Source: a virus
Virus genome (UHGV): UHGV-0293664
Length of the DNA stretch: 64,000 nucleotides
Reading direction: 5' to 3' (one strand)
In this document: positions 29,333 through 64,000 of the stretch, in pieces
Layout of the letters: every line of letters starts with the position of its first letter
Numbering within the stretch: the first letter of the stretch is position 1
Notes under the pieces: model-generated
What the model was told of the DNA's origin: nothing
What the model saw: the letters and a program-made list of their open reading frames with translations, nothing else
Databases searched by the model: none
Program-made: the position numbers and the translations under genes

Positions 29333-30094
29333 TTAAAGTTCCATAAAGTTTTCTACGATCTCAATGAATGTTTTATCAGAGAAAGCATCGACCGCCCCGT
29401 TAAACCAAACTGGGATGCCGCGATCCTCATATTGGTAAATATCACTACGTGAAATGCCATTCTCCCCCAGCTGCTGTGAGTCGTATTTGTTAACGATCAG
29501 CAGTTTGGTTCCCTTATTGCAGGCAGGGAATAGCTCCCAGTTAAAATTGATAACTGTGTTGGAACACCCTACAAGGATAACCATATCATTACTCGTAAGA
29601 GAAGTCAACAGGTCATACATGTCTGTATACTTCGGAGCTACTTCTCCGAAGAACACCACATTAGGCTTAACCCAGGTATACTTTCCTGCATCTACCTCAG
29701 AGTATCCAATGTCCTTAATGACGTTACTTCCTTCATCGTCCTCATAGACTATTTCTGGCAAATACCCGTGGACATGTAAAATATCTTCATGTTTTACACC
29801 AGCACGCTCCAGCAAATCATCTACATTGGTGGTAAGGTTGATCACACGACCAGACCAGCGGGAATACCACTCAGCGATCCGAAGATGTGCAAGGTTAGGA
29901 TCAACACTGCCCAGAGCTACACGACGTGCATTGTAAAAGTCATGCACCTTATAGTAGTTCTTGGCAAAGGTGTGGATGTTGCACACCTCATCGATGCTGA
30001 AATTCTCCCACATTGCAGTGCTACCAGATCGGAAAGTGGGAATACCAGATTCAGCGCTCAAACCCGCACCGGAGATAATAATAAGTCGTCGCAT
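29333..30094 (-). CDS. Sir2-family (sirtuin-like) protein lacking the zinc ribbon
   Basis: GAGLSAESGIPTFR, TTNVDDLLERAG, LHVHGY (catalytic His), VVFFGE, ILVGCS all match sirtuin motifs; no CxxC pairs. Confidence 0.65.
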   Translation of the reverse strand: MRRLIIISGAGLSAESGIPTFRSGSTAMWENFSIDEVCNIHTFAKNYYKVHDFYNARRVALGSVDPNLAHLRIAEWYSRWSGRVINLTTNVDDLLERAGVKHEDILHVHGYLPEIVYEDDEGSNVIKDIGYSEVDAGKYTWVKPNVVFFGEVAPKYTDMYDLLTSLTSNDMVILVGCSNTVINFNWELFPACNKGTKLLIVNKYDSQQLGENGISRSDIYQYEDRGIPVWFNGAVDAFSDKTFIEIVENFMEL

Positions 30095-30102
30095 AAGTGT
30101 CC

Positions 30103-30453
30103 TCAGTAGATGTTTTGTTTAATATCTATTCCAAACTTTTTAAACGAGTCAGCTGCAAGCATGAATTTACGAGCCGCTGATGGGTTAGAAGTATGCACGA
30201 AAATCTTCACGTTGTCAACTACAGGAGGCTTACCAAATACAAATTTTTCCTCCAACATAGATAGGCAATCGTACCCTTCGAACACCTCTCCAAGGTCGTT
30301 GTCCATGTGCCACTCAGAAACGCGTCTGTAGAGCTTTCTATTATCGTTAATAAAATCCATAAACTCGGAGGAATTCTTTAGCCAAATAGCGTCTGGTAGC
30401 CCATAATTTGACGGATCTCTCAAGTCATCCAGCCACACAATCAACTTCTTCAT
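30103..30453 (-). CDS. hypothetical protein (116 aa)
   Basis: ORF between Sir2 and the ligase-like gene. Confidence 0.4.
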   Translation of the reverse strand: MKKLIVWLDDLRDPSNYGLPDAIWLKNSSEFMDFINDNRKLYRRVSEWHMDNDLGEVFEGYDCLSMLEEKFVFGKPPVVDNVKIFVHTSNPSAARKFMLAADSFKKFGIDIKQNIY

Positions 30454-31406
30454 TGCATATAGTTCTCGTTGTGGAAATAGTAATCAAGTATCTCACGGCG
30501 TTCCTGCTCTAGGAGGCAGTTCCATACATCCTCTGTGTAGTTGTTACGAATGAAGTTTACCATGCCGTAAAACTCTTCGTCAACACGTTTAAAGATATCA
30601 TCATCCCAAATCTTCCAAGCTTTACCTCTCATTACGGCCTTCCGTGCCAGATAGTATGGAGACTTAATCTTCAGCTGCAGATCATAAGGGTAGTAAGGCT
30701 TACGAATCATATACCCTTCACCTCTTGTTTCTGCAGCTAATTCTTTTGCATAACTGAACGGAATTTCACGCACAGTGTGAGGACGTTTTGCACCAAGGTA
30801 TTTGGCAATCCCGTCTAGAGCTGCTTCTGGTAGCATTATTCCAGAATCATTATATCTGCAACCTATCAAATATGCGCCATGATCTTCCTGAACAATATGC
30901 GGATCTGAAGGGTGACAAATTTCAAACATGAATGTCATGTTTTCATTACCCATAACTTTCTTGATAAGATCTAAATTACCACATTGCTCATGGATGGTTT
31001 CCTTTGCGAGGTCACAATATGGAGAATCAAGAGATCCGGTTGTTGAGAACAATAGTTCACCTTTATGAGATGATACCACACCAAGGAATCCGTTCTTTTT
31101 CTCTACCGCCGTCACAAGCTTATTGTCAGGCAGGTTGGTGGAGTTTTCTCCTAAGTTAAACACTTTTGTGAAGGGCCATGCCACAACATTTCCTTCATTA
31201 CCGACAACAATGCCTCGACACTCCAGTAAACGAGGGGACAAATGCCATAGATTGTTGTAAAATACTTTTCTGGCATATTTATAGATCTTTAACCCAAGAT
31301 CTGGGTAATATCTACTGGTTACAAGACCTTTGTCAACTAGGTCGTCTGCATTAAAATACTTCATCATACGTTCCTCATTTGTCATTTTGTTCCACAATCT
31401 TCCCAC
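30450..31406 (-). CDS. putative RNA ligase (covalent nucleotidyltransferase)
   Basis: Motif I EKKNGF (KxNG), motif IV EGYMIRK, motif V LKIKS; distinct from the DNA ligase at 26695. Confidence 0.5.
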   Translation of the reverse strand: MGRLWNKMTNEERMMKYFNADDLVDKGLVTSRYYPDLGLKIYKYARKVFYNNLWHLSPRLLECRGIVVGNEGNVVAWPFTKVFNLGENSTNLPDNKLVTAVEKKNGFLGVVSSHKGELLFSTTGSLDSPYCDLAKETIHEQCGNLDLIKKVMGNENMTFMFEICHPSDPHIVQEDHGAYLIGCRYNDSGIMLPEAALDGIAKYLGAKRPHTVREIPFSYAKELAAETRGEGYMIRKPYYPYDLQLKIKSPYYLARKAVMRGKAWKIWDDDIFKRVDEEFYGMVNFIRNNYTEDVWNCLLEQERREILDYYFHNENYMQ

Positions 31407-31428
31407 ATAAACAGCATCATGTCAACAC

Positions 31429-31457
31429 TTGAAATGTTCAAAAGAACACGATATACT
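31429..31457 (+). promoter_or_regulatory. sigma70-like promoter
   Basis: TTGAAA (31429-31434), 17-nt spacer, TATACT (31452-31457) upstream of the kinase gene. Confidence 0.4.
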
Positions 31458-31485
31458 ATCGTTGAAATTAAAACGGAGGATTACT

Positions 31486-31896
31486 ATGTCTAAAATGCTA
31501 TATATCGTGCGTGGTCTACCAGGGTCTGGCAAATCAACACTGGCAAATGCGCTATCTTTAGAAGGTCTGTATCCACATTTTGAGAACGACATGTTCTGGT
31601 ACGACGATGATGGAAATTACAACTGGGATGCAAGTAAAGTAACACTTGCAGCAAAATGGTGCAAAGATAACGTAGAAGATATGATGCGTATGGGATACGA
31701 CCGTATCGTGGTAAGTAATACGTTTACAAAAGAAAAATATGTGCAAGAATATATTGACATGGCGATCAGTCATGGGTATAGTTATACCGTGATCGTGGTT
31801 GAAAACCGCCATGGTAATAAAAGCATTCATGATGTTCCAGACAGGGTTGTGGATCGTATGGAACGCCAGCTTAAAAACTGCATTAAACTTAAATGA
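31486..31896 (+). CDS. polynucleotide 5'-kinase-like P-loop protein
   Basis: GLPGSGKSTLANAL P-loop and VVSNTFT resemble the T4 Pnk kinase domain; start placed at the SD-preceded ATG (31486), not the longer track ORF. Confidence 0.55.
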   Translation: MSKMLYIVRGLPGSGKSTLANALSLEGLYPHFENDMFWYDDDGNYNWDASKVTLAAKWCKDNVEDMMRMGYDRIVVSNTFTKEKYVQEYIDMAISHGYSYTVIVVENRHGNKSIHDVPDRVVDRMERQLKNCIKLK

Positions 31897-31903
31897 GGAA
31901 TGT

Positions 31904-32458
31904 ATGAAATACTTTGTAACAAGCGACACACACTTTCTCCACCAGCGGGTCATGGAGTTCGACTCATGTCAAAAACACAGATCTCAGTATGATCACAATC
32001 TTGACAGTATGAATGCGGGAATCATCACCAAGTGGAACTCTGTTGTGTCACCTGCAGACACTGTGTTCCACTTGGGAGATATTGCGTGCACTAATGATAA
32101 GAATATCAACAACTTACTTCCAGATATTCTAAATATGTTGAACGGACATATTATTCTTGTTCGTGGCAACCATGACACAAGGACGACTGTCAGAATTATG
32201 AAAGAGTTCGGTCATGAGGTTGTAGATTATTACGAGCTTCGCCACAACAAGAATTTGATCTGTATGAGCCATTACCAGTTTGCAAAGTGGAACAGAAAGC
32301 CTCACGGATCAGTCCAACTGTTCGGTCATGCTCACGGAACCACACAGCAGTTGTTTGGCAGGCAGTTTGATGTCGGTTGGGATGTGTGGGGGAGACTCTT
32401 ACCATTAGAAGAGGCATACCGTATTGCAATGAGTCTTGCTATTGACAGCGGGGAGTAA
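31904..32458 (+). CDS. calcineurin-like metallophosphoesterase
   Basis: SDTHF, HLGDIACTND, VRGNHD binuclear-metal motifs; start placed at ATG 31904. Confidence 0.6.
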   Translation: MKYFVTSDTHFLHQRVMEFDSCQKHRSQYDHNLDSMNAGIITKWNSVVSPADTVFHLGDIACTNDKNINNLLPDILNMLNGHIILVRGNHDTRTTVRIMKEFGHEVVDYYELRHNKNLICMSHYQFAKWNRKPHGSVQLFGHAHGTTQQLFGRQFDVGWDVWGRLLPLEEAYRIAMSLAIDSGE

Positions 32459-56593: not shown

Positions 56594-57262
56594 ATGGCTG
56601 TAGCTTATCCTACAATACCAATTCCAGATCTTGAAGATGCAGAAACAGTCCTGAGTGATGACTTCTTGGTTGTCAACCAGACTGATGGGACAAGAAAGGC
56701 TAAGATTGACGATGTTGTCAACGATCTTAGTATTACTAAGATAGTCTATTTCACAGAGGGTGGTTATCTTAAGAGCAAGAAGGACTTTGCTTATGACCCA
56801 GAAACTAAACGCTACTATACGTGGAACGGGGATTATCCTAAAATAATCCTCCCAGACTCCACTGTAGATGGTGCTGGGGGTGTGTCTGCAAATGCCTGGT
56901 CTGTTTTTGGTGAGCTTGCTGCAACTTCTTCTGGCAGAATAGTTGATTACGGATCTATCGGTGGTCAGCTTGATATGGATCTTGAAGTTGCGGATACCTT
57001 TAAGGTTCGACTAACTTCAAATACCACAATCTCTTTTGAAAATCAAACAGAAGGTCTTGAAGGGGTGGCGAGAACTATAACCGTATGCATTACTCAGACC
57101 TCTGGCGGCAACAAAGTCTATTGGCCTGGTAATGTTAAATGGTCCTACGGAAGAGATCCTATCCTAACATTTACAGCTGGTGCAACAGATATTTTTAAGT
57201 TGGAAACCTACGACAACGGGTTAACTTGGTACGGGGCACTGATCATCGCAGGAGCTATCTAA
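56594..57262 (+). CDS. tail-fibre N-terminal-domain protein (222 aa)
   Basis: N-terminal ~90 aa homologous to the N-terminus of the 1269-aa fibre (DDFLVVNQTDGTRKAKIDDVV / DDYLVVQQPDLTRRVKIGDVV; EGGYL...DFAY / EGGKL...DFAY). Confidence 0.45.
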   Translation: MAVAYPTIPIPDLEDAETVLSDDFLVVNQTDGTRKAKIDDVVNDLSITKIVYFTEGGYLKSKKDFAYDPETKRYYTWNGDYPKIILPDSTVDGAGGVSANAWSVFGELAATSSGRIVDYGSIGGQLDMDLEVADTFKVRLTSNTTISFENQTEGLEGVARTITVCITQTSGGNKVYWPGNVKWSYGRDPILTFTAGATDIFKLETYDNGLTWYGALIIAGAI

Positions 57263-57263
57263 G

Positions 57264-59861
57264 ATGCGTATTCAACACAACATTGATAACGTATTTCAGA
57301 TGATTGAGGGGCACAGGAAGTGCCTCGATAACAACACAGGTATTACCAACACACCTACACAAAATAAGCTAGTAAACCCTGATGGTCTTATAGCTGCAGG
57401 GTGGGCAGGTAATAAGATAAATAATGATTGGGCAATGCATGAGTCCCAAGCTGTGTTGATTCTGGGATACATTGAAGCATACAGGGCATCGAAAAGCGAT
57501 TTCTATCTGGATAGGGCAAAAGATGCTTGGGAAGCTTACAATAGTCATCTTCTGGGTGCATATGCTGTAGAAAGTAAAATGCAAAGATTGTCCCACCACC
57601 CTCTGTCCACAGACGGGGTTCCATCACATGGTGGGTTTAAAGATGTGGTGGTGTCTTTTACTAATGGTAGAGGAAAAATCCCAGCTGGATCTCCGACATG
57701 GGGAGAATACCTGGACAAGGCATTCCAAGCATATAACGGTGTGTTAGGAAGAAACACTGTAGACTCTGATGTTTACGGCGGCACAGATGCTAACCCAGAT
57801 TGGACAACATCCGGATTAAGTTGGTGGGTTGAGTGGTATATAGCATGGGATGGTAACCGCTATTGGGCTAACGGTAGCATAGCCGACAGTGGTCATACGT
57901 CTGTAGAGTTCGGCACAATCCAATTACAAGATAAGGGTGTTACAGGCAGCCACAAGGTGACCTATTGTGTAAGATTACCTCAAGAGCAGGGTGGATCGGT
58001 GATACCTGCAGGATCCCCTGTAATTGTAAATCCTATAAACGTGGTTGCAGATAACCAGGCCCCAGAGTTGGACGGGGAAGAGATGTGGTGTGACGCTTGT
58101 TATCAACTCTACACCTTGACAGGTGAGGAAAAGTATTACACCGCGTTTAAACAGTCTTACAACAAGTTGCTTAATTTCAGTGATATAAACGCCTACGATA
58201 AGCTGTTTAGAAAGACCACGTTGATTAAGGCACCGTTCACAGATGGTACTTGCCTAGTTGCAGGGACAGTTCCTGTCATGAGCAGGGACAGTGACGGGTA
58301 TATCAATTTTAGAATGAACGCACGCCAGCCTTGTGAAATAATTCAAAAAGGGACTACATACAAAATAGGCAGAGATGCTGAAATTGTTATGAATTTCGGA
58401 GGAGAAGGGGTTCTGTTCCAGCCACATTTCATCCTTAATGATGGCAACAATAACAAAAAACAGTACAGGATAGGGGTTCCTTTTGGAGGGGCAGAGGTAA
58501 CAGAAATAGTTGCCAAGGTTACTGATTTCGTAGAGGTGGTTGGTAAAGACGGTAATCCGTATCTCTTACCTAAAGAGGAAAACATTGCCGTAAGCGGTGG
58601 TGCTAGTGTTAGTATGCAGTATGATACCGACATTTACAACCACTCTGACAACTTCACCCGCTGTAATATAGCAAGAGGCAAAGTAACTTTCAATTTTGGA
58701 AGAGAGATTTCTTTAAACTCAGTAACTTATCGATCAGATGATGAGATGGTAAGGGTCAAATTTCTTGACAAAGACAGGTGGTTATGGTATGCTGATCTAT
58801 ATGCCACTAATGGACAATGGATAACAGAAACTCTTACTCTAGGAGATTTCAAACTAGATCCGACACAACCTCATCACACCGAAGAAGAGATTAAACCTTT
58901 CTTTGCTAATCCTAAGGGGCTCACCTCTGTAGATTTCAGCCTAAGCGACAGGCAGATAGGTAATGGCTTGTTTGATCTATATTGCGTCAACACACTACCG
59001 CAATTTTATATTGCAGATAGGGATGCCTATCTAATCTGGTTTAGCGTATGGATGGCAAGCAAGACAGAATCAACCGCTAAGGTTGGCGATTGCTATGTCA
59101 GAAACTACAAGCAAGGTGCATACAGGCACACACCGGGTGTGTTCCCTGCCGGAAAGGTGATAGATAAGGAAAACTATCTCTTAGAGGAAAAGCCAAATTG
59201 GCCCTACCCTGGCATGCAATACCCAGCAGTCTACTGCATGGGTGCAGAAAACATAGATCGCCATAGATTGTCAAATACAACAGGCTTTCTGTATGACGCT
59301 CAAGTCTGGTATAATAATACATTTAAGACAGAGGGTCCAGTTGCCTCACGTTATGTATGGCAAAGAGGTAATGAAGGGTTGACTGGTTGGTGGGAGATGG
59401 TAGATAACTCTAAACTCCAGTCAAGATCTTTTGTTGCTGCGTGCCGCACAATATATGAGCTCAAGAAACATAAAGAACCTGTTGATGAAAGACTGTTCCT
59501 GTTCTGCCAGAAATGGGCATGGTTCCTCAACAGATTCCAGTCATCTCATTCAGGAAATCTGCCTACAGACTTTAACACCTCTGGGGGATATTCTTATCAA
59601 GACAGGGGAGACAGGATGTGGGTGGTAGGTGAATGGCTTGCAGGTTGCTGCTGGCTAGGTCTGTGCGGGTATTCAGAGACAATACCTCAAATAGATATTG
59701 TTGTAGAAGCCTGTGTGAAGCTACTGCAAAAGCACCACTTCATTAATGGGGATAATGTTTTAAACGGCTGCTGGGCAGTTTCTGATCCGGTAGGCTATCA
59801 CTCTGGCGAAATCCTTCGCGGTCTGGGCCTCTATGCTCAATACCGTGGATTGTACCTTTAA
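57264..59861 (+). CDS. large tail-associated protein (865 aa), putative tailspike/fibre or baseplate component
   Basis: Long Trp/Tyr/Gly/Asn-rich ORF in the fibre region, followed by a terminator. Confidence 0.45.
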   Translation: MRIQHNIDNVFQMIEGHRKCLDNNTGITNTPTQNKLVNPDGLIAAGWAGNKINNDWAMHESQAVLILGYIEAYRASKSDFYLDRAKDAWEAYNSHLLGAYAVESKMQRLSHHPLSTDGVPSHGGFKDVVVSFTNGRGKIPAGSPTWGEYLDKAFQAYNGVLGRNTVDSDVYGGTDANPDWTTSGLSWWVEWYIAWDGNRYWANGSIADSGHTSVEFGTIQLQDKGVTGSHKVTYCVRLPQEQGGSVIPAGSPVIVNPINVVADNQAPELDGEEMWCDACYQLYTLTGEEKYYTAFKQSYNKLLNFSDINAYDKLFRKTTLIKAPFTDGTCLVAGTVPVMSRDSDGYINFRMNARQPCEIIQKGTTYKIGRDAEIVMNFGGEGVLFQPHFILNDGNNNKKQYRIGVPFGGAEVTEIVAKVTDFVEVVGKDGNPYLLPKEENIAVSGGASVSMQYDTDIYNHSDNFTRCNIARGKVTFNFGREISLNSVTYRSDDEMVRVKFLDKDRWLWYADLYATNGQWITETLTLGDFKLDPTQPHHTEEEIKPFFANPKGLTSVDFSLSDRQIGNGLFDLYCVNTLPQFYIADRDAYLIWFSVWMASKTESTAKVGDCYVRNYKQGAYRHTPGVFPAGKVIDKENYLLEEKPNWPYPGMQYPAVYCMGAENIDRHRLSNTTGFLYDAQVWYNNTFKTEGPVASRYVWQRGNEGLTGWWEMVDNSKLQSRSFVAACRTIYELKKHKEPVDERLFLFCQKWAWFLNRFQSSHSGNLPTDFNTSGGYSYQDRGDRMWVVGEWLAGCCWLGLCGYSETIPQIDIVVEACVKLLQKHHFINGDNVLNGCWAVSDPVGYHSGEILRGLGLYAQYRGLYL

Positions 59862-59865
59862 CATA

Positions 59866-59885
59866 GGGGGCTGTTTGCCCCCTTT
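59866..59885 (+). terminator. rho-independent terminator
   Basis: GGGGGC-tgtttg-GCCCCC hairpin then TTT. Confidence 0.5.
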
Positions 59886-59896
59886 CAGGAGAAAGA

Positions 59897-62800
59897 ATGG
59901 CTGATATTAAAGTTGTCAGAATTGAATCTCTTCCTGCCACTACCGCAGTGACAGAGGATGATTACCTGGTTGTTCAGCAACCAGACCTGACCCGTCGTGT
60001 AAAAATTGGCGATGTTGTCCATGTGGATGGGACTGTTTCTCATGTAATCTCCTTTAAGGAAGGTGGTAAGTTAAACGGCCCAATGGATTTTGCCTACTTC
60101 GAAGAGGAAGACCTCTACCTGCGTTGGAAAGGCGAATTTCCGCACACTGTTCCTGCACTGTCTTCACCGTACGCTGATGGTGGGATTACTGACGCTGCAT
60201 GGATGGTATATACTGACCCGTCCTTAAGGGAGGAGCTGGAATCTACCATTGGCGCATCTATGATCATGACAGCCGAAGGGCAGTCTGTCCAGGATGTAAT
60301 GGATGTTACTGTTCAGACAGCTAACGATGCTAAAGCACTTGCACAGCGTGTAGATTTTGGTACAGTGCACACTGTAGGCGATGTTATTCACCTTGATAAC
60401 TTTGTTGGCCCTGCAGTTATTGAAGAGGGAAGAACTACCAACTACCCTTCTGTAGCAGCTGGTGAAAAATTTCTGAACGGTGTGGTATCTCGTCGTGATA
60501 CTACAACTGTTGATGGTATTTTCCGTGGTGCTACCTCAGGAGCCATGTATACCATTGCAGTAACCAACGGTGTAGCAACAACAAAAAGAATAGCACTTCG
60601 TGATGAATTTAAACGCCTAGAGGCAAACAACCCAACAAGAACAGTTATCCGTGCTGGAGATGATTTAAACACAGCAGGGTACTTGCAGCTTGATGCAACA
60701 GGCCGTTGGGGTATGTGGAACCAACAAACAGCTTCGTGGCAACCTCTTGCTATAGAGCAAGGCGGTACAGGGGCCAGAGATGTAGCAGGTGCACGCATTA
60801 ACTTAGGGGCTTTCTATAAGCAACGTGCAGCCCTTGAGCCAAATTTCAATATCAATAACTTGACTGGTAATCAGGATGGTGTATACTACCAGCCGATGAC
60901 TGCTTATGCAACTGAGGCAAATGGTTACCCTGCAGGTTCTGGTGCTGGTCACTTGATTGTTTGGCAGAACAATGCTAACGGCGGTACAGGTTGTCGTCAG
61001 GAATACTATCCATTCTCTAACGTAGATGTTTGGTATTTGAGAACCTATCAGGCCAACACAAATCAGTGGACTGCATGGCAGCCGATGGTCAGACCTCGTA
61101 ATGATGATACCTTTAGAACGCACATCGGTCTTGGGTCCAGAAATTCCCCTACCTTCGGGCACCTTTACCTGTCTCAAAGCTCTGCTGATGTTAAGTCGGC
61201 ATCAGGTATTGTTAACGGGGACAAATATAGTGCTGACGGTGTCCTTGAGCATGGGTATAGGATCTACTCTGAGGTAAGAAACGACAATAAAGCTTGGTTG
61301 ACAATCCACCTGCACAAAGGTGCAAAAGGATCTGAAACTCATAGATATTTAGGTTTCCGCGAAGACGGTGTATTAGTCTGCCCTAAATATATGCAAGTTG
61401 GGGATCTTACTGGTCAGCTGACAAACTGGGGGCTTGGAGAGTGGATTCGTAGTTCAGGGGCAGAAAGAGGTTTCTGGGGGTCCAAGAAAGCCGCCAAGAT
61501 GGTCATCTGGGATGGCGGGATGGACGAATCCGGTAACGGCAGTTTGGAATGGGGTGTTTATAACAACCGGAAGGCCAAGTGGGAACCTTTACCTCACGCC
61601 GCAGGTGGTACCGGGGCTACAACTTTAGCAGATGCTCAGAATCTGTTCAAAGTTCCTATAGCAGCAGGTGTAAAAGACTTATTAACACTGCCAAGAACCG
61701 CAGGGATGGAAGATGGGAAATACTACCCAATTATCGTTAGAACAGATCCGTACTATGCTCCAGCAACTGGCACTGATATTACTATAGTCACCAGGTCTTC
61801 ATCTGGAAATGACCCTATGAACTGTGCGACCTTACAGTGTCACTATAGAACTGGTGGTTGGACAGACAGAGGAGACTCTTTCTACGGGGTAGTAAATTTC
61901 TACCAGAATGAAAAAGCAATTCTTGGGATGGTTGCTCCAACAAGGGGTAAACAAGAATATGTTGCTTTCTATGCAGAGGCGCGTGCTTTCCCTGTCAGCA
62001 TATACGCAAGTAGAAATGTTGTCGAGGTGTTTACCAGAGAGCAAGATTACCAGGTTGGCTCTGTAACAAACAATCAGGACGGTGTTAAATTCGTTGCACC
62101 TCTCCAGTCAGCAGATTTGAATCTTGCTGTTCTTGGAGATAACAACACCAATACCAGACCTATTGTTGACTTCAAAGGTACCTCTGGGTTCTACACTGGC
62201 GGCGGCACACAGTGGCACTATATAGGCACTGCTGAACGCTATGCTGTGATGAGCAAAATGAATATGCCAAAAGTTGAGCTGTGGGCAGATGGTCTTGACT
62301 ATTTGTGCTACGGCAGCTCTAGAAAGGCGTTATTCTCTAATGCAGGATTCCAGTGTGCCTCCGATGGGACAGAGGATCTGACTAACGGTACGTTTACCTC
62401 TAAATGCGGTAATGGTGCTGGTCTCAAAGGTCGGGCAGAGTTCAGATCTACTCCGGAAGCGGGTCAAGTTATTGTTCGCGATGTTGTAGGCACAGCTCAT
62501 AGATTCTACAACTTCAACAAAGATGGTACTTTCTCAGCACCTGGTGGTTTTGTATGCCACACTGGTGGAGACTGGAACAACCAGTTTGGGAATAATAATC
62601 CGTCCAAAATAATGGCTGGCAACGTCAACGGACCTGAAGGTTCAATGGTTGTTGGCGGGGTGTCTGTAGCATTTTCTGGAAATTATGCTTTCCAGATAGC
62701 TGGTCGCCTTGATAGGTTGTATACCAGATCTATCGAGGGTGGTGCTCACAGACCGTGGAACAAGATCTTCTCACACAGAGGTGTAGGTCTTGGTTCTACA

Positions 62801-63706
62801 GACCTAAACACTTACGATGGTACTTGTGAGGGCATCTACGACCAACCGCTTGATGCCAACTCGACATCTGAAAGACATTACCCAGCACCGTACGCTGGTA
62901 CTCTGATTGTTTACCAGAACAATGCAAACAATCCGAAAGGATGCGTACAGGAGTACATCACACGTTTTGGTGACAGATACACGCGTGTTGGTAACATGGA
63001 TAGAACTGGTTCCACTTACATGTGGGAAGTTTGGCGGCATGATTCTGGTAAAGCTATCCAGTTACGCCCGAATCGCAATGTTGATGAAACAGATAAAGAG
63101 CTGTGCATTCATGTTGGTGGTTCTGAAAATCCCAGCAACAACGGTAACTTACCTAAGGATGATGCTGTACTCCATTATTGGGGTAACGGCAGCACAGGGG
63201 ATCGTCCAAACGTGTTAGAGTTTAAGGTTCTTGACGAGTCTCAAGCAAATTGGGTATGGCATTGCGGTACCTTGCCGGATAAATCAAGATATCTTTCTGT
63301 AAACGGTGCTGTGAATTGCGCATCTGTCAATCAGAGTTCTGACAGGGACCTGAAAGATAACATAGCTGTTATTCCTGATGCATTAGAAGCTATTCGGAAG
63401 ATGAAGGGCTATACTTACACTCTTAAAGAGAACGGTATGCCTTATGCAGGTGTTATAGCACAAGAGGTGCTTGAAGCGCTGCCGGAAGCAGTTAGCTCTT
63501 TCGTGCAAAGAAAGGAAATCCCAAACCCTGATCAAGATGGAACCCCTTTGATAACAGAGGAAAGATTCTACAGCGTGGATTACGCAGCCGTAACAGGCTT
63601 GCTTGTCCAGGTTTGCAGGGAACAGGACGATAAAATAACCGCCCTTGAGGAGCAGGTTAAAAAATTGACAGAGGTTGTTACTGGGTTGCAAGAGAAACTG
63701 AAGTAA
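59897..63706 (+). CDS. tail fibre protein with C-terminal intramolecular chaperone (peptidase S74-like) domain
   Basis: 1269 aa; C-terminus SDRDLKDNIAV...GVIAQEV...LPEAV...YSVDYAAVTGLLVQV then coiled coil (ITALEEQVKKLTEVV); internal repeated GGTGA and LIV-QNNAN-GC-QEY modules. Confidence 0.7.
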   Translation: MADIKVVRIESLPATTAVTEDDYLVVQQPDLTRRVKIGDVVHVDGTVSHVISFKEGGKLNGPMDFAYFEEEDLYLRWKGEFPHTVPALSSPYADGGITDAAWMVYTDPSLREELESTIGASMIMTAEGQSVQDVMDVTVQTANDAKALAQRVDFGTVHTVGDVIHLDNFVGPAVIEEGRTTNYPSVAAGEKFLNGVVSRRDTTTVDGIFRGATSGAMYTIAVTNGVATTKRIALRDEFKRLEANNPTRTVIRAGDDLNTAGYLQLDATGRWGMWNQQTASWQPLAIEQGGTGARDVAGARINLGAFYKQRAALEPNFNINNLTGNQDGVYYQPMTAYATEANGYPAGSGAGHLIVWQNNANGGTGCRQEYYPFSNVDVWYLRTYQANTNQWTAWQPMVRPRNDDTFRTHIGLGSRNSPTFGHLYLSQSSADVKSASGIVNGDKYSADGVLEHGYRIYSEVRNDNKAWLTIHLHKGAKGSETHRYLGFREDGVLVCPKYMQVGDLTGQLTNWGLGEWIRSSGAERGFWGSKKAAKMVIWDGGMDESGNGSLEWGVYNNRKAKWEPLPHAAGGTGATTLADAQNLFKVPIAAGVKDLLTLPRTAGMEDGKYYPIIVRTDPYYAPATGTDITIVTRSSSGNDPMNCATLQCHYRTGGWTDRGDSFYGVVNFYQNEKAILGMVAPTRGKQEYVAFYAEARAFPVSIYASRNVVEVFTREQDYQVGSVTNNQDGVKFVAPLQSADLNLAVLGDNNTNTRPIVDFKGTSGFYTGGGTQWHYIGTAERYAVMSKMNMPKVELWADGLDYLCYGSSRKALFSNAGFQCASDGTEDLTNGTFTSKCGNGAGLKGRAEFRSTPEAGQVIVRDVVGTAHRFYNFNKDGTFSAPGGFVCHTGGDWNNQFGNNNPSKIMAGNVNGPEGSMVVGGVSVAFSGNYAFQIAGRLDRLYTRSIEGGAHRPWNKIFSHRGVGLGSTDLNTYDGTCEGIYDQPLDANSTSERHYPAPYAGTLIVYQNNANNPKGCVQEYITRFGDRYTRVGNMDRTGSTYMWEVWRHDSGKAIQLRPNRNVDETDKELCIHVGGSENPSNNGNLPKDDAVLHYWGNGSTGDRPNVLEFKVLDESQANWVWHCGTLPDKSRYLSVNGAVNCASVNQSSDRDLKDNIAVIPDALEAIRKMKGYTYTLKENGMPYAGVIAQEVLEALPEAVSSFVQRKEIPNPDQDGTPLITEERFYSVDYAAVTGLLVQVCREQDDKITALEEQVKKLTEVVTGLQEKLK

Positions 63707-63713
63707 CTGTTTT

Positions 63714-63740
63714 GCCCTCGCTTCGGCGGGGGCTTTTTGT
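63714..63740 (+). terminator. rho-independent terminator
   Basis: GCCCTCGC-ttcg-GCGGGGGC hairpin then TTTTT. Confidence 0.6.
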
Positions 63741-63745
63741 TTGTA

Positions 63746-63806: not shown

Positions 63807-64000
63807 TGTTTTTATGGGAAAGGCCTAGATACCTTCCAGATATTAGATTGGAGCTGCTGGCAGATATTGTTACGTTTAAAAGTCCGTTTACAGGTAAAAC
63901 GCAAAAAGTAACCTATGCCACACCTAACTGGAAAGGCACTTTGACGGTTTCCAATATCAGTGAGTCACAGTTGCTAGAGCTTAAGAGCTTTGTCGATCAG
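63807..64000 (+). CDS. hypothetical protein, 5' fragment (runs off window end)
   Basis: ATG after GGAGG; open to the end of the window. Confidence 0.35.

Follow-up and report, generated by a model that had tools for sequence, protein, structure and literature searches.

Modular architecture, cassette exchange and predicted self-cleavage in a lateral tail fibre of an rV5-like Vequintavirus

Related fibres and identity of the gene

That phage fibres carry S74 intramolecular chaperones is textbook knowledge, and related C-terminal chaperone domains (Peptidase_S74) are found in the K1F endosialidase (endoNF; PDB 3gw6) and in the eukaryotic MyRF ICA (7dc3). The T5 fibre protein pb1 is cleaved at Thr1263|Ser1264 with a Ser1264/Lys1269 dyad, the uncleaved chaperone masks receptor binding, and Arg1250 of a neighbouring chain together with Asp1239 makes up a 'folding sensor' (PMC4690869). 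In the RBPseg class TC12, domains follow the order D42 - D7 'pyocin knob' - unclassified - D42, and the fibre ends in either an S74 domain or a lectin head (PMC12143355). Models and cryo-EM images of fibres of this class exist; in the map of phage MaxBurger (Bas54), density for S74 is absent (PMC12143355), although at 7-9.5 Å flexibility could equally explain the missing density. From the text of PMC12143355, we infer that D42 is the GGTGA unit described below and that RBP_11 is the MaxBurger protein bas54_0027. The bas54_0027 gene tolerates transposon insertions when the host is E. coli K-12; with clinical isolates as hosts, some of the lateral fibre genes are conditionally essential (bioRxiv 10.1101/2025.11.20.689424).

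The window, the whole 64,000-nt stretch of UHGV virus genome UHGV-0293664 that was analysed, is Vequintavirus DNA and shows synteny with the BASEL phages Bas59, Bas54 and Bas49. Its fibre gene encodes a 1269-aa precursor of 139.1 kDa that matches PHROG 6578 'tail fiber protein' (E=0); a search of NCBIfam with the fibre gave no match, nor did a Pfam search with the 865-aa protein encoded upstream.

59897..63706 (+): lateral tail fibre gene, assigned from the ORF, PHROG 6578, synteny and 88% identity with bas54_0027

The product and bas54_0027 share 88% identity over the full length and the same genomic position, and they are near-identical from approximately residue 1096 onward; bas59_0026 is a further ortholog. 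The Bas49 protein bas49_0026 is 92% identical over residues 1-1050, after which a lectin-like head, with a weak ConA-like match at the C-terminal end, replaces S74. The first-pass annotation had called this ORF a tail fibre, which is upheld by PHROG 6578, Pfam and the orthology with bas54_0027; the phage is a Vequintavirus, an rV5-like phage of E. coli, and the product is one among its accessory lateral (side) tail fibres. The order GGTGA unit - knob - unclassified segment - GGTGA unit, together with the orthology, places it in TC12. Like bas54_0027, it has the domain order D42 - pyocin knob - unclassified - D42 ... S74, but the second knob and the segment that follows (approximately residues 961-1095) are strongly divergent from that ortholog; in this region the window allele is nearest to phage JEP1 (94.5% at the DNA level) and to distant Collar-type fibres. 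Modelling and imaging of the 88%-identical ortholog have already made this type of fibre known, with its repeated modules and its S74 end. Because of this, and because S74 chaperones are textbook material, we attach little weight to the fibre as a discovery.

Repeated modules and the optional cassette

Within the conserved N-terminal region (approximately residues 1-150), Pfam PF18668 matches residues 46-103 with E=1.1e-9 and 38.6 bits against a cut-off of 25, and PDB sequence matches are to the N-termini of phage tailspikes and fibres, 9occ, 9lna, 9d84, 4qnl and 5w6h among them. A domain of this Tail_spike_N type would tie the trimer to the network of baseplate fibres. Along the shaft, reusable modules follow one another: first a GGTGA unit, then pyocin knob 1 and a segment that is unclassified, next another GGTGA unit and the middle shaft, and finally pyocin knob 2 with the gp34-like beta module. 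The middle shaft is 76-97% conserved among alleles, and PHROG 745 matches its residues 602-704; Pfam searches of the middle shaft (residues 599-961) and of the knob copies gave no match.

60032..60205 (+): N-terminal anchor domain, Tail_spike_N (Pfam PF18668), residues 46-103
60665..60844 (+): GGTGA inter-domain unit, copy 1, residues 257-316, W.PL...GGTGA...AR.NLG (HMM 2.6e-27)
60830..61096 (+): pyocin-knob domain, copy 1, residues 312-400 (HMM 1.5e-31; hhalign 99% to copy 2)
61514..61690 (+): GGTGA inter-domain unit, copy 2, residues 540-598 (HMM 4.8e-16; hhalign)
61691..62779 (+): middle shaft, residues 599-961, conserved among alleles (PHROG 745)
62780..63052 (+): pyocin-knob domain, copy 2, residues 962-1052, hypervariable and mosaic

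Two recurring segments had been reported in this fibre, one with GGTGA near 60761 and 61597 and the other of the form LIV-QNNAN-GC-QEY. The first GGTGA motif is indeed at nt 60761 (residue 289), whereas the second is actually at nt 61604 (residue 570). The other recurrence is seen as LIV.QNNAN..GC.QEY, with QNNAN at residues 357 (nt 60965) and 1007 (nt 62915). Both recurrences are beyond chance in Smith-Waterman and in hhalign comparison. When the fibre was compared with itself, BLASTP returned the identity match only and no repeats; the repeats are detectable only by Smith-Waterman alignment against shuffled sequences and by profile methods. Segments 241-330 and 521-610 align with z=10.6, and segments 301-420 and 951-1070 with z=18.1, the observed score being reached by 0/1000 shuffles in either case, and cross-pairs are close to background. 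Profile-profile comparison with hhalign gave 97.4% for the GGTGA pair (E=1.3e-11, 41 columns, 39% identity) and 99.0% for the QNNAN pair (E=9e-18, 75 columns, 41% identity); all six control pairings were at or below 1.3%.

The two repeat pairs represent module types that are unrelated to each other: one is the GGTGA inter-domain unit, the other a pyocin-knob domain. The GGTGA profile matches the SU10 fibre 7z47 (E=1.4e-15), as well as 8vbx, 6cl5 and 8hqz. The knob profile, made from nine copies, shows homology over approximately 65-70 residues to the knobs of the R2/R1 pyocin fibres (6ct8, E=5e-9; 6cl6, E=1.2e-8; 6cl5, E=9.5e-6), with which the beta-sandwich fold agrees. These R-type pyocin fibres of Pseudomonas aeruginosa thus have homologous knob domains, but their end is a lectin-like foot, a separate chaperone serves in their assembly and S74 is absent from them.

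Some alleles lack the region between the two GGTGA motifs. Alleles of approximately 988 and 1198 aa match the window fibre over residues 1-331 and again from 551/552 to 1269 (or 1050), lacking approximately 290-570, and their single GGTGA unit is a chimera, with the N-terminal half of copy 1 and the C-terminal half of copy 2 (P0059). A homologue search with this cassette found 11 proteins only. Its AlphaFold model (residues 250-610) has a mean pLDDT of 48.5 and was therefore kept out of the fold search.

60764..61606 (+): optional cassette, approximately residues 290-570 (knob 1 and an unclassified beta-rich segment), with GGTGA motifs at both bounds; absent from short alleles

The internal duplication proposed in the first-pass annotation holds as a description of domain content but is not demonstrated as an event within the window gene, and a recent one is not supported because the copies are only approximately 40% identical in protein and approximately 50% in DNA. 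A recent tandem duplication inside this gene, with the short alleles as the ancestral unduplicated state, would fit the two copies of each module in long alleles against one of each in short alleles, and the two GGTGA units that flank the 281-aa length difference between them. We nevertheless consider it improbable. The copies share 39-41% of amino acids and 50-51% of nucleotides (54/105 and 52/105 identical positions), and a search for direct repeats in the DNA returned nothing meaningful, the longest being 23 nt at 78%. The modules are arranged as A-B-X-A-M-B, as opposed to the AB-AB expected of tandem copies, and knob 1 is as far from knob 2 (35% identity) as from the knobs of an unrelated 359-aa protein (33-36%). 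Both modules are widespread, each occurring 1-10 times, in varying copy number, in many unrelated fibres, and deletion through recombination between the copies accounts at least equally well for the GGTGA chimera seen in the short alleles. Since the modules are widespread, knob 1 is no nearer to knob 2 than to foreign knobs and the DNA identity is approximately 50%, duplication as an intragenic event is unsupported, and we prefer to describe the repeats as two common fibre modules, each present twice.

The S74 domain and the tip of the mature fibre

The last ~120 residues had been assigned to an S74-type domain of ~14 kDa. An HMM search bears this out: Pfam Peptidase_S74 (PF13884) matches residues 1148-1199 with E=8.9e-14 and 52 bits, well above the cut-off of 22, over positions 1-57 of the 58-position model, and the C-terminal fragment 1148-1269 comprises 122 aa and 13.64 kDa. 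Model position 1 aligns on Ser1148, where the SDRDLKDNI motif starts (nt 63338), and a Ser-x4-Lys dyad with the spacing of Ser1264/Lys1269 in T5 pb1 stands at the N-terminal edge of the domain. Ser1148, Asp1149, Leu1152 and Lys1153 are invariant among the aligned homologues (59/59 for each), and 117 of 120 C-terminal homologues have the motif S[DE]xx(hydrophobic)K. The C-terminal position, a size within ~110-150 aa, and a beta-hairpin with a long C-terminal helix of the trimeric coiled-coil type likewise agree with S74. Structural matches of the predicted model, a monomer with a mean pLDDT of 74.6, are to ICA/IMC domains, with weak Foldseek E values (best 1.6e-3).

63053..63337 (+): distal mature end, residues 1053-1147, in which a variable stretch after knob 2 leads into a beta module like that of T4 gp34, ending ...VNGAVNCASVNQS
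63338..63703 (+): S74 intramolecular chaperone/autoprotease domain, residues 1148-1269 (Pfam), with Ser1148 as predicted nucleophile and Lys1153 as predicted base
63714..63743 (+): intrinsic-terminator-like hairpin and T-run, 8 nt past the fibre stop codon

Like the window fibre, T5 pb1 (PDB 4uw8) carries S74 at its C-terminus, with a Ser-x4-Lys dyad, a long central helix and a beta-hairpin, and there is a GGTGA unit within its shaft (8hqz residues 451-476). In contrast, no significant sequence similarity extends beyond the S74 and GGTGA modules, and pb1 has a unique 'bullet' domain at its tip, whereas the mature window fibre would end in a pyocin knob and a gp34-like module. The endosialidase has a sialidase beta-propeller and a triple beta-helix stalk, while the S74 domain of the window sits on a non-enzymatic fibre shaft. 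As regards a counterpart of the pb1 'folding sensor', the conserved residues upstream of Ser1148, W1095, G1096, R1103 and E1108, lie in a module shared with T4 gp34, a protein without S74; R1131 is not conserved.

The cut in T5 pb1 falls directly N-terminal to its serine, and by this analogy the cleavage site placed earlier at SDRDLKDNI can be refined to the bond directly before Ser1148. The predicted scissile bond is S1147|S1148 (nt 63337|63338), and the putative catalytic serine would depart with the chaperone. By homology with the K1F endosialidase and T5 pb1, three C-terminal domains would trimerise via their long helices and template the folding of the preceding fibre. Once the fold is correct, Ser1148, activated by Lys1153, would cut the chain, freeing a 13.6-kDa fragment and leaving a 125.5-kDa mature chain that ends ...VNQS. 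Self-cleavage of the C-terminal 122 residues after folding is the most likely outcome.

Downstream of the stop codon, the stem of the terminator-like hairpin has 8 pairs, 7 of them GC; its loop is 4 nt long and its tail reads TTTTTGTTTG. The next gene (ATG 63807), a homologue of PHROG 1302 'distal tail protein', is separated from the fibre by 100 nt without an ORF. An adjoining gp38-like adhesin gene was considered and rejected for the flanking DNA, in which these elements are found instead.

Residues 961-1110 are 0.42-0.72 identical among 24 close alleles, as compared to 0.87-0.98 in S74. Knob 2 of the window is 84-90% identical to knob 2 of fibres whose backbones are only ~53% identical, which suggests that this region is swapped horizontally between fibre backbones. 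The most likely seat of host specificity is knob 2 with the segment that follows (residues 961-1110), the basis of this assignment being that the region is hypervariable and mosaic.

Two other views of the fibre end have to be weighed. The S74-like domain might be kept in the virion, where it would form a structural cap at the C-terminus (a coiled-coil knob) without self-cleaving; self-cleavage of the window fibre is after all a prediction, and part of the S74-family matches in databases are degenerate. This seems very improbable, given that the Ser/Lys dyad and its flanking motif are present in every one of the 59 aligned homologues, that no density for the domain was seen in an ortholog whose S74 region is near-identical (PMC12143355), and that a chaperone left uncleaved on T5 pb1 masks receptor binding (PMC4690869). 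The tip left after cleavage might also dock a separate adhesin, in the manner of gp38 on gp37 in T2 and S16, rather than bind the receptor, as the RBPseg authors proposed for MaxBurger (PMC12143355). Salmonella phage S16 gp37, of the T2 type, provides the best PDB sequence match to the S74 region and its nearest relative among solved structures (6f45, E=9.5e-9), with a shared ...N.SSDR..K..I motif. Furthermore, the last mature module of the window fibre resembles a T4 gp34 shaft module rather than a dedicated head, and in Collar-type alleles the gp34-like module runs on into a further distal domain. However, S16 has the gp38 adhesin gene alongside gp37, and next to the window fibre there is none, the examined DNA on its 3' side holding the terminator and then the PHROG 1302 homologue. 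The MaxBurger map shows no adhesin density (PMC12143355), and conservation would be expected of a docking surface, yet no part of the protein varies more, or is more mosaic, than residues 961-1110. On this evidence from the map, the flanking DNA and the alleles, we consider adhesin docking unlikely.

Cassette exchange and possible chaperoning modes among alleles

Homology among alleles breaks at residue 1050 of the window fibre and at residues 1144-1147, and in some alleles another end module takes the place of S74 from precisely its boundary onward, with a small separate gene downstream of the fibre. The fibre evolves via cassette exchange at fixed junctions, namely the GGTGA units, the end of knob 2 (approximately residue 1050) and the S74 boundary (residues 1144-1147). 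In the S74 alleles (window, Bas54, Bas59 and L006), the next conserved gene comes after the fibre with no other gene in between. Collar-type alleles, on the L006 backbone, are followed by a gene of 148-151 aa with a weak Caudo_TAP_N match, and lectin-type alleles by a 110-aa ORF of PHROG 1361, to which no function is assigned; the 110-aa ORF of EmilHeitz gave no match in Pfam. The small downstream gene of non-S74 alleles is plausibly a trans-acting assembly chaperone.

With high confidence, we read the whole as an accessory Vequintavirus lateral fibre with a modular shaft and an S74 C-terminal chaperone that evolves by exchange of cassettes. More tentatively, at somewhat less than even odds, the fibre family may work like a natural building set that is spliced at three fixed points, in which the distal module travels together with its chaperoning mode: S74 in cis without an extra gene, a Collar head with a TAP-like gene, or a lectin-like head with the 110-aa ORF.

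For annotation, the mature fibre can be given as residues 1-1147, on the basis of the predicted cleavage. For engineering, residues 961-1110 are the likely specificity determinant, and the mapped natural exchange junctions mark possible splice sites for building chimeric fibres in rV5-like therapeutic phages. Should the 110-aa ORF prove to be a new fibre chaperone that acts in trans, and should recombination truly take place at the GGTGA units, the family would offer ready-made sites for engineering the host range of such phages.

The fibre gene, its locus and its known relatives

The fibre gene occupies 59897..63706 on the + strand and encodes 1269 aa, and an ORF check returned exactly the coordinates of the first-pass annotation. 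It is Vequintavirus (rV5-like coliphage) DNA, with matches in 123 phage records (top match 92%), and lies in a conserved baseplate and fibre region, 3' of two genes:

56594-57262, gene for a 222-aa protein, upstream of the fibre gene; 'sialidase domain protein' in BASEL (curated coliphage) genomes
57264-59861, gene for an 865-aa protein, upstream of the fibre gene; match to PHROG 2871 'tail protein'

The 865-aa product, labelled 'lateral tail fiber protein with glycosidase domains', had no match in Pfam. Homologues of the 222-aa protein possess the Tail_spike_N domain, as does the fibre; because this N-terminal anchor domain is common to both, sequence comparison suggests that the two proteins attach to one baseplate site or to each other. 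The stop of the 865-aa gene (59861) and the Shine-Dalgarno sequence of the fibre gene (AGGAGA) are 35 nt apart, and a perfect GC hairpin lies between them: GGGGGC-TGTTT-GCCCCC, with TTTC after it (window 59866-59882). It is absent from the terminator scan because its T-run is short, and it may serve in weak termination, in attenuation or in mRNA stability. Elsewhere in the window (~30000-32000), GC skew flips from negative to positive around 31 kb, which indicates that transcription units diverge there, leftward on one side and rightward on the other.

Identification of the protein as a tail fibre is borne out by PHROG 6578 'tail fiber protein' (E=0) and by the label of this gene in the curated BASEL genomes, 'lateral tail fiber protein'. 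The fibre is of a known type, with an 88%-identical ortholog already in the literature: MaxBurger (Bas54) bas54_0027 is 88% identical over the whole length and almost identical from ~residue 1096 to the end. EmilHeitz (Bas49) bas49_0026 is 92% identical across residues 1-1050, beyond which its end, of 428 aa, differs and has a weak concanavalin-A-like match. We infer, from our own mapping of the published numbering to genes, that these two fibres are RBP_11 (MaxBurger) and RBP_10 (EmilHeitz) of RBPseg class TC12, which have a common domain order but end in S74 and in a lectin-like head, respectively (PMC12143355). Eighteen GenBank records of 'Campylobacter phage' without annotation (MG065646, MG065647, MG0656xx; host Campylobacter jejuni) cover 90-100% of the fibre gene at 92-94% DNA identity; their host label looks doubtful, the phages being either mislabelled or coliphages co-isolated with Campylobacter.

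Recurrent modules

GGTGA segments and LIV.QNNAN..GC.QEY segments recur in the fibre, as the first-pass annotation had noted. GGTGA lies at aa 289 (nt 60761) and aa 570 (nt 61604), the other segment near aa 357 (nt 60965) and near aa 1007 (nt 62915). In self-comparison by local alignment, the two pairs scored 10.6 (GGTGA) and 18.1 (QNNAN) SD above shuffles, with 0/1000 shuffles reaching the score and cross-pairs close to background. Aligned by hhalign, profiles of 37 full-length alleles (the query and 36 homologues) gave 97.4% (E=1.3e-11) for GGTGA; the QNNAN pair reached 99.0% (E=9e-18), and all six control pairings stayed at or below 1.3%. These recurrences are not due to chance and represent two different module types:

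aa 312-400 and 962-1052, QNNAN module, a pyocin-knob domain (knobs 1 and 2)
aa 257-316 and 540-598, GGTGA module, an inter-domain unit (WG.[WY]N....W.PL...GGTGA...AR.NLG)

A profile of nine non-redundant knob copies matched two pyocin fibres, R2 (E=5e-9 and 1.2e-8) and R1 (9.5e-6), and some relatives are listed at NCBI as 'pyocin knob domain-containing S74 family peptidase'. The GGTGA module is a widespread inter-domain unit: its profile has two matches in the SU10 fibre 7z47 (E=1.4e-15) and also matches fibre gp47 (8vbx), T5 pb1 (8hqz, residues 451-476) and the R1 pyocin fibre (6cl5, residues 256-282), in the last case directly behind the knob. In the published description of TC12 a mobile pseudo-domain, D42, occurs twice, on either side of the 'pyocin knob' D7 and an unclassified pseudo-domain (PMC12143355). 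The collected relatives carry 1 to 10 GGTGA units per protein. Homologues P0071, P0087 and their relatives (~1620 aa) have five, three of them in tandem at ~aa 598-768, and the 490-aa homologue P0251 has about ten short ones; such widely varying copy number may tune fibre length or flexibility.

The internal duplication proposed earlier holds as a description of domain content but is not established as an event within this gene. Copies share only 39-41% amino-acid and 51% (54/105) or 50% (52/105) nucleotide identity, and a DNA repeat search found nothing beyond 23 nt, so the copies are old. Knob 1 is as distant from knob 2 (35%) as from those of an unrelated protein of 359 aa (33-36%), and the module order is A-B-X-A-M-B, with no tandem array. 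A recent tandem duplication is therefore disfavoured by both the divergence of the copies and their non-tandem arrangement.

The S74 domain and its predicted cleavage

The proposed C-terminal S74-type chaperone was recovered by HMM search: Pfam Peptidase_S74 matches residues 1148-1199 (E=8.9e-14), with model position 1 on Ser1148, where the motif SDRDLKDNI begins (nt 63338). Ser1148, Asp1149, Leu1152 and Lys1153 are each present in 59/59 aligned homologues, which include many E. coli prophage fibres of just 30-45% identity, and 117 of 120 C-terminal relatives have the motif. In T5 pb1, Ser1264 is the nucleophile and Lys1269 its activator; the Thr1263/Ser1264 bond is cut and the serine departs with the chaperone (PMC4690869). 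The fibre has the same Ser-x4-Lys spacing, and by homology the predicted cut would fall at S1147/S1148 (nt 63337/63338), with computed masses of 125.45 kDa for the mature chain and 13.64 kDa for the fragment. Residues 940-1269 were modelled with AlphaFold (mean pLDDT 74.6); like known chaperone domains, the model has a long beta-hairpin (1199-1227) and ends in a helix (1229-1268, pLDDT 86-94). Foldseek placed T5 pb1 plus chaperone (4uw8) and the chaperone of endosialidase (3gw6) highest (probability 0.92-0.97, with weak E-values).

Two other views of the mature tip are disfavoured. Against an S74 cap that stays on uncleaved stand the invariance of the Ser/Lys dyad and the published cryo-EM map of the MaxBurger fibre, in which the peptidase domain has no density (PMC12143355). 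Docking of a separately encoded adhesin on the cleaved tip, as in S16/T2, would call for an adhesin gene, which was not found beside the fibre gene; in addition, extra density is absent from the published map, and the region where docking would take place is hypervariable. Overall, the earlier observation is confirmed and its reading as a fibre with repeated modules and an S74 end is supported.

Exchange of end modules and probable host-range role

Homologues sort into discrete architectures. Short alleles of ~988 aa (with S74) and ~1198 aa (without) lack ~281 residues between the two GGTGA motifs and have one knob versus two; their lone GGTGA unit is chimeric, with copy 1 as far as GGTGA and copy 2 thereafter (homologue P0059). 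In S74-less alleles of ~1480 aa homology stops where knob 2 ends (residue 1050); in those that carry a Pfam Collar domain (~1445 and ~1620 aa) it continues to precisely the S74 boundary, residues 1144-1147.

In two independent genomic backbones the end module co-varies with downstream gene content:

63714-63733, window, terminator-like hairpin 3' of the fibre gene
L004:7438-7893 and L005:7955-8401, loci of relatives, 148-151-aa genes after Collar-type alleles
L003:9684-10013 (EmilHeitz bas49_0027) and L007:6097-6429, loci of relatives, 110-aa ORF after lectin-type alleles

After S74 alleles the next conserved gene follows directly (the window, Bas59, Bas54 and locus L006), and the window has no ORF between the fibre gene and the ATG at 63807. 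Collar alleles in the L006 backbone are followed by the extra 148-151-aa gene, with a weak Caudo_TAP_N match, which the S74 allele L006 lacks. The 110-aa ORF (PHROG 1361, a function-unknown family; no Pfam match) lies immediately downstream of lectin-type alleles, is absent after S74 alleles and is a candidate for a tip partner or for a fibre chaperone that acts in trans. This co-variation is expected if S74 provides in cis the folding help that other ends would receive in trans. Preceded by the RBS GGGAGG, the next gene begins at 63807 and extends past the window end (63807-64000). Its 196-aa Bas59 ortholog is labelled 'tail fiber protein', probably wrongly, since it matches PHROG 1302 'distal tail protein' (E=2e-50).

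Among 24 close S74 alleles, identity to the window fibre is at least ~0.9 across most of the length and 0.87-0.98 in S74 but falls to 0.42-0.72 in residues 961-1110, where, judging from this variability, host specificity probably resides. Knob 2 and the post-knob segment of the window fibre are 84-90% and 72-88% identical, respectively, to their counterparts in Collar-type fibres whose backbones are just ~53% identical; against most close Vequintavirus alleles the two segments reach just 46-63%. Only JEP1 among isolated phages has a similar tip (94.5% DNA identity; others ~80%). By these comparisons the tip allele is mosaic in origin. Because an 88%-identical ortholog has already been described, only this origin, the precise exchange junctions and the cis/trans chaperone co-variation are mildly new.

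Transposon insertions in the MaxBurger ortholog are tolerated on E. coli K-12; on clinical isolates, some lateral fibre genes are conditionally essential (bioRxiv 10.1101/2025.11.20.689424). Published work assigns both the primary (ECA/NGR) and the terminal (LPS core) receptors of these phages to other fibres. Given this tolerance and these assignments, the protein is most likely an accessory host-range fibre.
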